Shown piece by piece: positions 14,052-33,593 of a stretch of DNA of 35,904 bases. How positions within the stretch are numbered: the stretch's first letter is position 1; each line of letters opens with the position of its first letter. The notes under the pieces were generated by a model that saw nothing but the letters and a program-made list of their open reading frames with translations, was not told the DNA's origin and did no database searches. Position numbers and translations under genes: made by a program. This DNA comes from a virus, in UHGV virus genome UHGV-0042151. One strand, 5' to 3'.

Positions 14052-14079
14052 AGCCAGCTCATCGGCTGGCTGTTTGTGA
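14052..14079. terminator. bidirectional intrinsic terminator
   Basis: AGCCAGC-tcatcg-GCTGGCT hairpin with U-rich flank on + strand; lies between convergent genes. Confidence 0.45.
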
Positions 14080-14091: not shown

Positions 14092-14511
14092 TTATTTAAT
14101 GGCATTAAATCCAGCGTTGATGGCTTCCGCAATATTGATGGCACTTGTTTTATCGAAGTGCCCATTCTGAATAAGCGCCGCATGCAGGCATTGTAACTTC
14201 ATGTTGTATAAGTGTTCGCTCATGTAATCATTATCACTTTTTGCTTTAGCGTAAACAGCGCGAGAAATATCAAACACATCGCCTTTTTCCATTTCAGAAC
14301 GTTGTGCTGTTATCCAGTCATGGAACGTAACGCTAGTACCATGGTCTTCGCTAAGAGTTAACCCGGCCAGTCCCTCACTCTGAATTACTTCGTAATGCAT
14401 TTCATTATCAGCAAAAACGCCATAAAAAATGCAGTCTTCAGCCTGAACGATACGAGAATATTTTAATGGCCATTCATTTAGATACTTAGCCAACATATCA
14501 ATTGTCTTCAT
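14092..14511 (-). CDS. hypothetical moron protein (139 aa), opposite strand to packaging genes
   Basis: AAGGTGAG SD then ATG 14511; no recognisable domain; embedded between TerL and portal. Confidence 0.5.
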   Translation of the reverse strand: MKTIDMLAKYLNEWPLKYSRIVQAEDCIFYGVFADNEMHYEVIQSEGLAGLTLSEDHGTSVTFHDWITAQRSEMEKGDVFDISRAVYAKAKSDNDYMSEHLYNMKLQCLHAALIQNGHFDKTSAINIAEAINAGFNAIK

Positions 14512-14522
14512 GATCTCACCTT

Positions 14523-14546
14523 AAAAAAATGCCCGGCGAACCGGGC
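14523..14546 (-). terminator. rho-independent terminator (minus strand) downstream of tRNA-Arg
   Basis: GCCCGG-ttcg-CCGGGC followed by U7 on minus strand; U-run abuts the SD of the 14511 gene. Confidence 0.55.
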
Positions 14547-14709
14547 GAACTGGAAGCAATGAGTTATGCCTTCCGTGGCTGTACGGGTTTACAGCATGAA
14601 GTCATCGCAATGGCGTCCTGCTGTAAAAAGGGCGGTGATAGTCCTTCAAGGGAAACTATCACCGCCAAGCACCTGGAGCTTCTGGCATCACGGTCCTTAG
14701 GCGTGATTC

Positions 14710-14786
14710 TGGCGTGGCATGCAGGATTCGAACCTGCGACCAACCGCTTAGAAGGCGGTTGCTCTGTCCAACTGAGCTAATGCCAC
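14710..14786 (-). tRNA. tRNA-Arg (anticodon UCU)
   Basis: Hand-folded cloverleaf: acceptor GTGGCAT/ATGCCAC, D-arm GCTC-AGTTGGACA-GAGC, anticodon arm ACCGC-CTTCTAA-GCGGT, T-arm GCAGG-TTCGAAT-CCTGC, 3' GCCA; similar to but distinct from E. coli argU as recalled. Confidence 0.9.
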
Positions 14787-15108
14787 AACGCTGAGAGCAC
14801 TTAGCCTGTTAAGGCGCCACACTTTGTCGCGGCTCCATAAATGCTCTCATCGTTGTACCCTCGTCTCTTCCGAGGCGTCACACCGAATCGCCGGGATGGT
14901 GAATCCCCGTGCGCGGAATAAAACCGCTCGACTTGCACATTCCGGCTACCTGGTTCGTTTGCCCGAGCAAGGGAGGGTGCCCCTTAAACGTATCCAGACC
15001 GCTATCGGCGCATGTGCCATACGCCGTACTGCTCAAAATAAAAGCTCACTCCACCTGTTCAATTTAACGACAAGCCAGTCAGGTTAGTAACCGGAATGAA
15101 CTCTTTGG

Positions 15109-15123
15109 TTACCTAAAGGGTAA
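15109..15123. promoter_or_regulatory. palindromic site TTACC-N5-GGTAA upstream of portal operon
   Basis: TTACCTAAAGGGTAA, 90 nt upstream of ATG 15214. Confidence 0.45.
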
Positions 15124-15213
15124 TAATTAGCGCGTTAAATGTCAACTTTCTACGATAAATAAATCATATGTGGTTAAATTGGTAATAATTTAATTGCGTA
15201 CGGAGTCATTGAT

Positions 15214-15420
15214 ATGTGCATGGGTAGCTCACCATCAGTGCCTGCAACACCAGAAGTTCAGGCAGCACCACAGGAGCAGGATGCCGCCGTTGTTGATGCC
15301 CGCGACGAAGAAACACGTCGCCGTCGCGCTGCTGCTGGTCGTAGTTCTACGCTGCTTACCGGTTCTCAGGGCGACACATCAACTGCTAATACCAGCGGTA
15401 AAACGCTGCTTGGTCAGTAA
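15214..15420 (+). CDS. small hypothetical protein (68 aa)
   Basis: CGGAGTCATTGATATG RBS context repeated at the portal start (15421-15437). Confidence 0.4.
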   Translation: MCMGSSPSVPATPEVQAAPQEQDAAVVDARDEETRRRRAAAGRSSTLLTGSQGDTSTANTSGKTLLGQ

Positions 15421-32635: not shown

Positions 32636-33322
32636 TCAGAAGAACCCAGCCTTGTCGTTGATGTACTCCGCGTGGGTCTGGATATCACGCAGGCATTTGC
32701 TCACACCAACAATGTAGCAGAACATGGTGGTCAGCTCCGCCGCCGCGCCCGATACGTCGTGCCCGTCTTCCTGTAACTGGTTCAGCAGATTCATCAGCAG
32801 TGAGTTCTCCGTCAGGCCGAGAACACCAGACGGAGAATGAATCAGGCTGCGGTAGCCGGGCTTCAGTGGGGCACTGTAGGTTTTGTTCTCTATCTTCATT
32901 GCCTGCATCACTGCTGATGCTGTGGCGTTGGCTACCTGGTCGGCAACTATCTTTATGCGTTCTTCCTGCGGGAGCGAGTTTTTAATGTAACTTCCGGTGC
33001 GGCGGATCTGAGGAAGAACCTCACCTGTAACCCATTTACGAAAGCGGTAGGGGATAGTGCCTGGTGTCACTGCGTCGCGGCAGCGGAGGATCAGTGTGTA
33101 GAGGCCTGACTCGTTGATAATATTGGTTTCACCTTGACGGCCTAAGTTAAATTTAGCCCTTTCATCATCATCAAGAGATTTTATTGACATAGTGGGGTTT
33201 GTCAGTTGAAGAGCTTTAATAACGTCTTTGGCAACAAACCAAGGATTTCCATCAATAACAATGGCTCGAATGGTGGCTTCTGATTCAAAATGAAAAACAG
33301 ATGGGGTTACGTTAGCAGTCAT
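32636..33322 (-). CDS. Bro-N domain antirepressor-like protein
   Basis: N-terminus 'IRAIVIDGNPWFVAKDVIKALQL...GLYTLILR' fits Bro-N; C-terminal domain homologous to the 34473..34730 product; AGGTGA SD then ATG 33322. Confidence 0.65.
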   Translation of the reverse strand: MTANVTPSVFHFESEATIRAIVIDGNPWFVAKDVIKALQLTNPTMSIKSLDDDERAKFNLGRQGETNIINESGLYTLILRCRDAVTPGTIPYRFRKWVTGEVLPQIRRTGSYIKNSLPQEERIKIVADQVANATASAVMQAMKIENKTYSAPLKPGYRSLIHSPSGVLGLTENSLLMNLLNQLQEDGHDVSGAAAELTTMFCYIVGVSKCLRDIQTHAEYINDKAGFF

Positions 33323-33481
33323 AGTGATCACCTTTTAGTATGGTTAATCACCACCTGAGGTGCAAATCTCGTTGGTGGTGAGACGTACAGGGTTTGCACT
33401 ACCGGCTAAAAGGACCCGGCGCACCTTTCGGTGCCCCTGCACGTCCCACCATAATTCTGGCATGACTGTGCTATACGCATA

Positions 33482-33503
33482 AAAAAACCACGTCTGGCGT
33501 GGT
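33482..33503 (-). terminator. intrinsic terminator inside Bro-N upstream region (possible sRNA or attenuator 3' end)
   Basis: Minus strand ACCACG-CCAGA-CGTGGT followed by U7. Confidence 0.4.
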
Positions 33504-33593
33504 ATGCGCCTTTTAGTAATCCGGGGTGCAAATCCCGGCACTGGATTTTGCCAGTGCCCGATTACTATGGCACAAGAGGAGTGCGATGTAAAT

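Follow-up and report, generated by a model that had tools for sequence, protein, structure and literature searches.

UHGV-0042151 is a viral DNA of 35,904 nucleotides, referred to as a whole as the window, and the subject of this study is a unit on its minus strand, located in the gap between the terminase and portal genes. The window is a Uetakevirus prophage of the epsilon15/phiV10 type adjoining guaA; the region was matched at 100% identity by the chromosome of Escherichia coli MS 198-1, and phages phiV10, HEMP4, PAS61, and TL-2011b are 92-98% identical to the window over the shared parts. An original prediction, made from the letters of the sequence, had described here a minus-strand block of a leader, tRNA-Arg(UCU), and an open reading frame (ORF) for a 139-amino-acid protein, and all these parts were found in place by ARAGORN, Rfam, and an ORF scan. 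In the minus-strand direction, a promoter-like site is followed by the leader RNA, the tRNA, two terminator-like hairpins (T1 and T2), and the ORF (ORF139). The leader, hereafter called the element, is an RNA of about 170-250 nt with a conserved fold that includes a pseudoknot. Literature searches on the tRNA of phiV10, on put-like RNAs, and on the ban operon of P1 yielded no description of it. Judged by Rfam and the searchable literature, the leader RNA is thus undescribed; both the tRNA and the ORF were known before. The parts of the unit are as follows.

15117..15145, minus strand: predicted sigma-70-like promoter (TTGACA at 15145-15140, 17-nt spacer, TACCCT at 15122-15117)
15038..15110, minus strand: variable 5' part of the leader
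14856..15037, minus strand: core of the element, defined by the covariation test and the covariance model described below
14710..14786, minus strand: tRNA-Arg, anticodon UCU, CCA encoded
14624..14677, minus strand: T1, a hairpin (14666-14631) with a 14-bp stem, followed by CUUUUUAC
14547..14623, minus strand: conserved inter-terminator unit
14523..14546, minus strand: T2, GCCCGG-UUCG-CCGGGC followed by A and U7, a canonical intrinsic terminator
14512..14522, minus strand: Shine-Dalgarno region AAGGUGAGAUC, abutting the U-tract of T2
14092..14511, minus strand: ORF139, a 139-amino-acid accessory protein (phrog_4846) in a hypervariable cassette slot

Transcription is predicted to start near 15110 on the minus strand. 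Eight Uetakevirus loci were aligned (alignment A1), their hosts belonging to four genera (E. coli, Salmonella, Klebsiella, and Enterobacter). The TTGAC and ATTACC.TT of the promoter-like site are invariant among them, and the consensus across the alignment is TTGACA-17-TACC(C/U)U, a pattern that points to promoter activity at this site.

Structure, strand, and distribution of the leader RNA

On the minus strand of 14787-15110, no ORF of 60 or more amino acids was found, and an Rfam search of the same segment returned nothing at the gathering score and nothing at E<=10. A model of five helices and two candidate pseudoknots was tested by covariation on 25 sequences, at most 97% identical to each other (alignment A3). 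The pairings in the window are given below.

15026-22/15010-06, minus strand: core helix H1
14999-94/14953-48, minus strand: core helix P2
14907-04/14896-93, minus strand: core helix H4
14901-898/14884-81, minus strand: pseudoknot PK2, formed by the H4 loop CACC with a downstream GGUG
14875-71/14863-59, minus strand: core helix H5
14786..14855, minus strand: closing helix H6 (14855-14840 with 14801-14786) around a variable insert

The proportion of properly paired cells was 96.0%, as compared with 88.2 +/- 0.5% after shuffling, and none of 500 shuffles reached the observed value. The number of pairs changed on both sides was 18, against 10.2 in shuffled alignments and 1-6 in slid controls, and the covariation score was 0.224, against 0.071 or less for slid partners. 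An all-against-all covariation scan of 115 unique sequences recovered the same helices and no others, and it gave no extra long-range helices for the invariant stretches. H6 consists of 16 pairs; in seven of them both partners change, and GUAGCUCACU/AGUGAGCUAC in locus L008 is a case of full compensation. The last base pair of H6 uses G1 of tRNA-Arg. PK2 covaries from CACC/GGUG to AACC/GGUU in the lambdoid lineage, and the same switch is seen in the Kosakonia genome L141, of which the H4 stem is of a different type. The other pseudoknot, PK1 (GCACAU/AUGUGC), is put forward as a proposal; both its sides are invariant in the 25 sequences, and a variant in L138 breaks one pair. The variable 5' part forms a stem, AAAGCGCAC...GUGCGCUU, with compensatory changes in relatives; the 5' arm of this stem is diverged in the window and phiV10 (alignment A1). 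Altogether the core has 168 positions, to which H6 is added. The covariance model R1, built on the core, scored 155.5 bits in the window and detected one copy each in the window, mEp460, and P1.

Conserved G.U pairs at four positions, present in 13 to 25 of the 25 sequences, are valid on the minus strand only, indicating that the RNA is made in the minus-strand sense. The fold energy (z = -2.47 for the sense and -2.77 for the antisense strand) did not tell the strands apart. An element acting at the DNA level, such as an attachment site (att) or a replication origin (ori), was rejected on the basis of the compensatory changes, including these strand-specific G.U pairs, and a protein-coding leader was rejected because there is no ORF and the variation follows the helices. 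A small ORF ('VNAQADAQ...') after H6 in some relatives was not taken to be a gene; it has no Shine-Dalgarno sequence, and a hairpin overlaps it. Overlap with the tRNA or with the structured RNA, in most cases from the other strand, is also shown by hypothetical coding sequences annotated at L001 2087-2338 (PhiV10p04), L130 2443-2811 (mEp460 gp37), L006 2824-2985 (Tyrion gp54), and L008 2616-2867; these are probably non-genes.

By pattern scans, the element was identified in at least 120 IMG/VR contigs, 83 GenBank phages, and 22 species genomes, all of the latter being Enterobacteriaceae or Erwinia, with six other scan matches attributable to chance. A total of 184 instances were classified by context. 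About 74 are located in the terminase-portal gap of Uetakevirus. Another 56 form a lambdoid class, carried by mEp460, cdtI, and Stx2c/Stx2a-converting phages, in which the element lies on the same strand as a CI-like repressor gene, at a median of 156 nt downstream, and is the first feature transcribed from pL, with no tRNA nearby. In the members with HK022-type operators, this is the site that the put antiterminator RNA occupies in HK022 and HK639. About 12 belong to P1, P7, and relatives, where the element lies in the ban operon under C1 control, with tRNA-Ile(CAU) on one side and ban on the other; the P1 element begins 14 nt after this tRNA. The P1-type copies lack H6 and keep the core. Among about 79 Uetakevirus-type loci, the tRNA is present in about 57% and the leader RNA in about 85-90%, and in Tyrion and ST11-OXA245phi3.2 the element persists with a short non-tRNA segment in place of the tRNA. 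Phage epsilon15 is without the element core, the tRNA, and half of T1; it appears to be a deletion derivative, the deletion having taken place between two 13-nt copies of TTCCCTTGATGCT, which lie in the loops of P2 and T1 (epsilon15 L003 2250-2262 compared with L005).

Terminators, cassette gene, and tRNA

One terminator had been predicted between the tRNA and the gene. A terminator is present there, although the scan identified two terminator-like hairpins rather than one, T1 at 14631-14666 and T2 at 14531-14546. T2, reading GCCCGGTTCGCCGGGC plus ATTTTTTT at 14546-14523, is directly followed by AAGGTGAGATC-ATG, and its U-tract therefore runs into the ribosome-binding site of ORF139 just as had been noticed; the T2 stem shows compensatory variation (GCCCAC/GUGGGC in Salmonella phages). 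A scan of the segment between T1 and the ORF gave no promoter-like site, in agreement with the view that the gene has no room for a promoter of its own. The 3' hairpin of T1 is of the DicF type (UUGGCGGU...ACCGCCCUUUUU), as aligned with K-12 dicF and mEp460 (alignment A2). The likeness is confined to this hairpin: the 5' half of T1 is unlike the DicF seed, and the Rfam DicF model (RF00039) scored 16.9 bits at T1, below the gathering score of 48. A hairpin/terminator homologous to T1 also follows the element in mEp460 and L045. In the P1 record, a 'dicF-like region' is annotated elsewhere in the ban operon.

The unit between T1 and T2 is conserved in all eight aligned loci, epsilon15 included, and contains an invariant 15-mer, CGCCAUUGCGAUGAC / CGCCATTGCGATGAC (minus-strand sense), at 14615-14601, which is also retained in epsilon15. 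The segment 14512-14712 folds with z = -4.65. The conserved T1-T2 unit of about 115 nt, ending in a canonical terminator, is possibly a small RNA or a processing unit.

ORF139 is recorded in RefSeq as a hypothetical protein (WP_000848283.1). It belongs to phrog_4846, and all of its 102 homologues are unnamed enterobacterial proteins, PHROGs assigns no function, and no match was obtained in Pfam, including the Tad2-like family PF11195, in NCBIfam, or in PADLOC. The AlphaFold2 model has a mean predicted local distance difference test score (pLDDT) of 67.6, and its confident part is the C-terminal helical hairpin alone. Residues 90-139 (14092-14241) constitute a 50-amino-acid helical-hairpin module that recurs at about 82% identity behind unrelated N-terminal halves, for example in P0093 and L006 2037-2408. 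Between related phages, homology is lost precisely at the two ends of the ORF, its start codon and its stop codon, and at least six unrelated proteins occupy the slot: phrog_4846, PF13876 (in phiV10 and epsilon15), Tad2-like PF11195, an SPFH-like membrane protein, a 283-amino-acid membrane coiled-coil protein, and a zinc-finger protein. The Tad2-like (Thoeris anti-defence 2) members follow T2 in L004 1983-2504, minus strand (Klebsiella phage ST512-KPC3phi13.3; E = 4e-26), and in the IMG/VR contigs L092 (E = 3e-24) and L103, and their presence in relatives suggests that the slot is a site for accessory or anti-defence cassettes.

The tRNA scored 73.3 bits against the Rfam tRNA model (RF00005; gathering score 29), with a cloverleaf fold, and is already annotated in RefSeq and in several records of phiV10-type phages. 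As had been predicted, it differs from host argU in the acceptor and anticodon stems. Compared with K-12 argU, 14 of 77 positions differ (82% identity), involving three acceptor-stem pairs, the anticodon stem, one D-loop base, and one variable-loop base, and the anticodon loop and T arm are identical; the anticodon and T arm are common to argU and the tRNA-Arg(UCU) of phiV10, SPN1S, and lambdoid phages. The possibility that the tRNA is a copy of argU marking an integration site did not hold, since the tRNA is distinct, no att-like duplication was seen at it, and the att site and integrase of the prophage lie beside guaA, about 15 kb away. The frequencies of AGA and AGG are 7.5 and 4.1 per 1000 codons in the prophage genes, several-fold above those in E. 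coli genes (about 2 and about 1 per 1000, respectively). The proposed supply of AGA decoding by the tRNA is thus plausible, and codon supply would be a sufficient rationale for its presence. In SPN9TCW-type and some lambdoid copies (L005:2786-3084, minus strand, L011, and L131), the insert of H6 holds T-arm-like hairpins, CUGGUUCAAUUCCAG and GUUCGAUUC, which may be decayed tRNA pieces.

Two further features flank the unit.

14052..14071, no strand assigned: bidirectional terminator (terminator scan), serving the terminase operon and the minus-strand unit
15174..15193, no strand assigned: perfect palindrome TTAAATT-N6-AATTTAA, within an invariant block of about 65 bp (15140-15205) in front of gp3/portal

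The terminator is also annotated in phiV10 and is conserved in all loci aligned. The minus-strand block is the ancestral arrangement of epsilon15/phiV10-type phages and no recent insertion, and no promoter was found for its gene; the proposed labels of insertion and of moron in the strict sense are thus not supported. A terminator after the gene and variable presence among related phages, two marks of a moron, were observed, and a promoter directly upstream of ORF139 was not. The palindrome is invariant in alignment A1, across the four host genera, and occurs once in the window, with no repeat elsewhere in it; the homologous site in the epsilon15 record is labelled as repressor and IHF binding. 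No operator-like word was common to the cI/cro intergenic region of the prophage and 15095-15215. At a distance from this locus, Rfam detected a C4 antisense RNA (33371-33456, minus strand, 77.8 bits) and isrK (33481-33557, minus strand, 67.4 bits) just upstream of a BRO-N antirepressor-like gene (32636-33331, minus strand), a set that looks like a P1 immI-type antirepressor control module within the Uetakevirus prophage.

A candidate antiterminator RNA and its alternatives

An ORF without a promoter behind a strong terminator, in an arrangement that is kept while the ORF is swapped, is most economically explained by read-through from upstream. The read-through from an upstream promoter that had been suggested for this gene therefore stands as the best available reading, and a conserved structured RNA, located in lambdoid relatives in the slot of the antiterminator RNA putL, offers a concrete candidate mechanism. 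In the window, no N- or Q-type antiterminator is annotated. We propose, with chances that we consider about even, that the element is a cis-acting processive antiterminator RNA that enables read-through of T1 and T2 into the cassette gene. Transcription would start near 15110 from the sigma-70-like promoter (~15145-15117), and the first 320 nt of the transcript would fold into the pseudoknotted RNA. The nascent element would then act in cis on its own polymerase, as do the put RNAs of HK022 and HK639, and the elongation complex, made resistant to termination, would pass T1 and T2 to transcribe the promoterless gene; polymerase without the RNA would stop at T1 or T2, giving only the tRNA and short RNAs. 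The tRNA would be cut from the same transcript to supply AGA (and AGG) decoding to a phage rich in these codons, and short RNAs ending at T1 and T2 might be processed from it as well. What the sequences show is which parts are present and in what order, the structure, strand, and conservation of the RNA, and its place in the putL slot of lambdoid relatives; the activity of the promoter, the co-transcription of these parts, and the antitermination itself are inferences. This mechanism would account for the promoterless gene behind a terminator, for the element being kept more often than the tRNA, and for the recurrence of the element plus T1 as a module after pL in mEp460 and L045, the former with no N gene seen. 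The broader view is held somewhat more tentatively, with slightly less than even chances: that the leader is the first of a new, large class of cis-acting processive antiterminator RNAs in enterobacterial phages, which replaces put in position and function at pL of N-lacking lambdoid phages, is used in the ban operon of P1, and drives the Uetakevirus cassette operon (tRNA, small RNA, and anti-defence gene) through two terminators.

Several observations weigh against antitermination. The -10 box of the putative promoter is weak (3/6), because of which the site was not listed by the consensus scan. In P1, 2.3 kb separate the element from Pban, and ban is not preceded by any obvious intrinsic terminator. 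Of 76 loci, 64 have one or more terminator-like sites within 1 kb downstream of the element, but the density of such sites, 1.29/kb, is barely above that of the upstream control, 1.0/kb. In epsilon15, the core has been lost and T2 still lies directly before the gene. As to the relationship with put, the 15-nt signature held in common (see below) is by itself common by chance in large collections, and R1 gave no matches to the put RNAs of HK022 and HK639 even with filters off, the best score being below 0 bits. Put is about 70 nt long with two stems (126 nt are annotated in HK639), whereas the element, two to three times that size, has about 170-250 nt, at least five helices, and a pseudoknot in a different helix layout; G35, which is essential in put, is not conserved in the element.

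Among the alternatives, the element might be a stable noncoding RNA, freed from a tRNA precursor by RNase P/RNase E, that acts in trans by binding to a protein or RNA of the host or of the phage; it would then lie after promoters simply because it is expressed early. The direct contact with tRNAs fits this possibility, as H6 ends on G1 of tRNA-Arg in the window and the P1 copy starts so shortly (14 nt) past tRNA-Ile(CAU) that tRNA-processing enzymes would set its ends, and so do the long invariant single-stranded stretches (GGUAGCCGGAAUGUGCAAG, UGGCGAU.CGGUGUGAC), which look like binding surfaces, and the P1 context without a downstream terminator. The lambdoid class of 56 instances, described in this connection as the largest, however, has no tRNA nearby and is transcribed first from pL, at the position of put, and an RNA acting in trans would have no reason to keep its position and orientation in three unrelated phage types; we regard this explanation as unlikely. 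The 3' strand of H6 draws attention to a Nus-factor route as in rrn leaders or nut, by which the boxA-like sequence would recruit NusB/NusE and shield the transcript from Rho, with the rest of the fold controlling the exposure of boxA. This strand reads UGCUCUCA (as in the window), UGCUCUUU, or GCGCUCC in nearly all variants, with 6-8 of 8 matches to the boxA core; the boxA of rrn is UGCUCUUUAACAA and that of lambda is CGCUCUUA. A hairpin 13 nt downstream would help in the lambdoid, Tyrion, and KpST11 variants, where UGCGCA-GGCUGA-UGCGCA follows in mEp460, Tyrion, and KpST11, the same motif is present in Qin upstream of dicF, and an untranslated transcript of about 600 nt is a typical substrate of Rho. 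The boxA-like strand is, however, base-paired in H6 with full covariation, L008 has GUGAGCUAC instead, and H6 is wholly absent from the P1-type copies that retain the core. Systems based on boxA act against Rho, and no such action of theirs is known on strong intrinsic terminators like T2. We consider this route quite unlikely.

It is improbable in our view that the element serves as a 5' stabilizer or processing platform, either an RNase III/E substrate or a protective fold, which would set the half-life and maturation of the downstream tRNA, small RNA, and mRNA with no effect on polymerase. The long, near-perfect H6 of 16-17 bp and the RNase III site labelled in the intergenic region of the epsilon15 record are in its favour, as is the precedent of Qin, in which RNase III/E reportedly process an operon of this sort to give DicF. 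A simple stabilizer would nevertheless have no need of five helices and a pseudoknot, nor of unpaired bases that are invariant at more than 40 positions, and the transcription of a gene behind T2 is left unexplained. We give as little credence to a moron in which the tRNA and the 139-amino-acid protein act jointly, for instance by replacing a host tRNA-Arg targeted by a nuclease. The differences from argU in the acceptor and anticodon stems, the enrichment of AGA and AGG in the prophage, and the Tad2-like anti-defence gene in the slot of some relatives are compatible with such a joint role. Against it, the tRNA and the slot gene assort independently: several slot families, phrog_4846 and PF13876 among them, are present in loci that have the tRNA as well as in loci that lack it, while the tRNA is found beside at least six unrelated slot proteins. 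The functional link once suggested, a specific partnership between tRNA and protein, is thus not supported; ORF139 contains no AGA or AGG codons and matches no defence or anti-defence family. The anticodon loop, being identical to that of argU, also offers no obvious escape from an anticodon-loop nuclease.

To our knowledge, processive antitermination by RNA only is known from very few systems, put of HK022-type phages and EAR with its related elements. If the element is a second, distinct solution, it would explain the early-left expression in N-lacking lambdoid prophages, including Stx2- and cdt-converting ones. Antitermination by the element would likewise explain the expression of ban in P1 after a run of tRNA genes and that of swappable accessory or anti-defence genes behind a strong terminator in epsilon15/phiV10-type phages, and it would provide a compact genetic part for terminator read-through and a new RNA-RNA polymerase complex for structural study. 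Whatever the mechanism, a widespread and strongly covarying RNA without an Rfam family is present in some of the best-studied phages.

Comparison with nut, dicB, and put systems

With the boxA of rrn and lambda nut, the element has in common the boxA-like octamer at the 3' side of H6 and, in some variants, a hairpin at nut-like spacing. It differs from these systems in the pairing of the boxA-like strand, in the lack of a nearby gene for an N protein, and in its core, for which nut and rrn leaders have no counterpart. The dicB operon of Qin (ydfABC-dicF-dicB) is of the early-left type, with a DicF-type hairpin/terminator before a gene that needs read-through, and T1 shares the DicF 3' hairpin with it. 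In the ydfC-dicF gap of Qin (L132 19230-19300), GUGCGCUUCCGGUUGUGG is followed by CCGCGAAAUGGCGCGGCGGUAAGUAUGGCGGGGUUA, as after the element in L039-type lambdoid phages, and no copy of the element core was detected in Qin by R1.

The closest comparison is with put. A putL-like antiterminator RNA is annotated after pL in HK639, and HK022 putL was located by sequence; Rfam found nothing on HK022 putL and is accordingly no test of put membership. The element sequence ACGGCG-N7-CAUGCG(U/C)CG-N(1-2)-AGCG matches ACGGCG-N11-CAUGCGUCG-GG-AGCG of put, both containing a CGGCG/CG(U/C)CG helix with a G.U pair, a CAUG bulge, and a following AGCG. By cryo-electron microscopy of put, the common stretch covers the helix C10-G14/C30-G34 with G12.U32, and U28 of the CAUG bulge, which is essential, enters a pocket of the beta' zinc-binding domain (PMC9378689). 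The shared signature amounts to about 19 nt and includes the equivalent of U28; neither put locus, however, reaches 0 bits with R1. The element lacks the CGGCAA interface of put and, unlike put, also occurs outside lambdoid phages, in the P1 ban operon and the Uetakevirus gap. Since the RNAs differ beyond the common stretch and R1 is blind to put, the element is not a demonstrable member of the put family.

The position of the two RNAs in lambdoid phages, by comparison, is the same. The element in its lambdoid instances, like put (HK022 putL/putR and the putL-like RNA of HK639), is the first transcribed element after pL, lying in sense orientation just past the early promoter of N-lacking phages; in the window, it lies about 75 nt after the conserved promoter-like site. 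Absence of N was checked in mEp460 only, from the annotation, which shows a Q-like gene and, in the immunity and early regions, no N gene; the ORF that comes first after the element does not resemble N. Terminators follow both RNAs inside the operon. Loci with either RNA have homologous flanks: an OL/pL of the same HK022 type, with 95.6% identity over 45 nt, is shared by L321 (put) and L045 (element) and ends 75 nt upstream of put in the former and 34 nt upstream of the element in the latter; the cI regions of HK639/L318 and L161/L045 can likewise be aligned, with corresponding distances; and L328 (put) and L138 (element) have 106 nt in common directly downstream. In mosaic lambdoid genomes, positional replacement usually marks functional analogues, and by this analogy the element would be a functional analogue of put.

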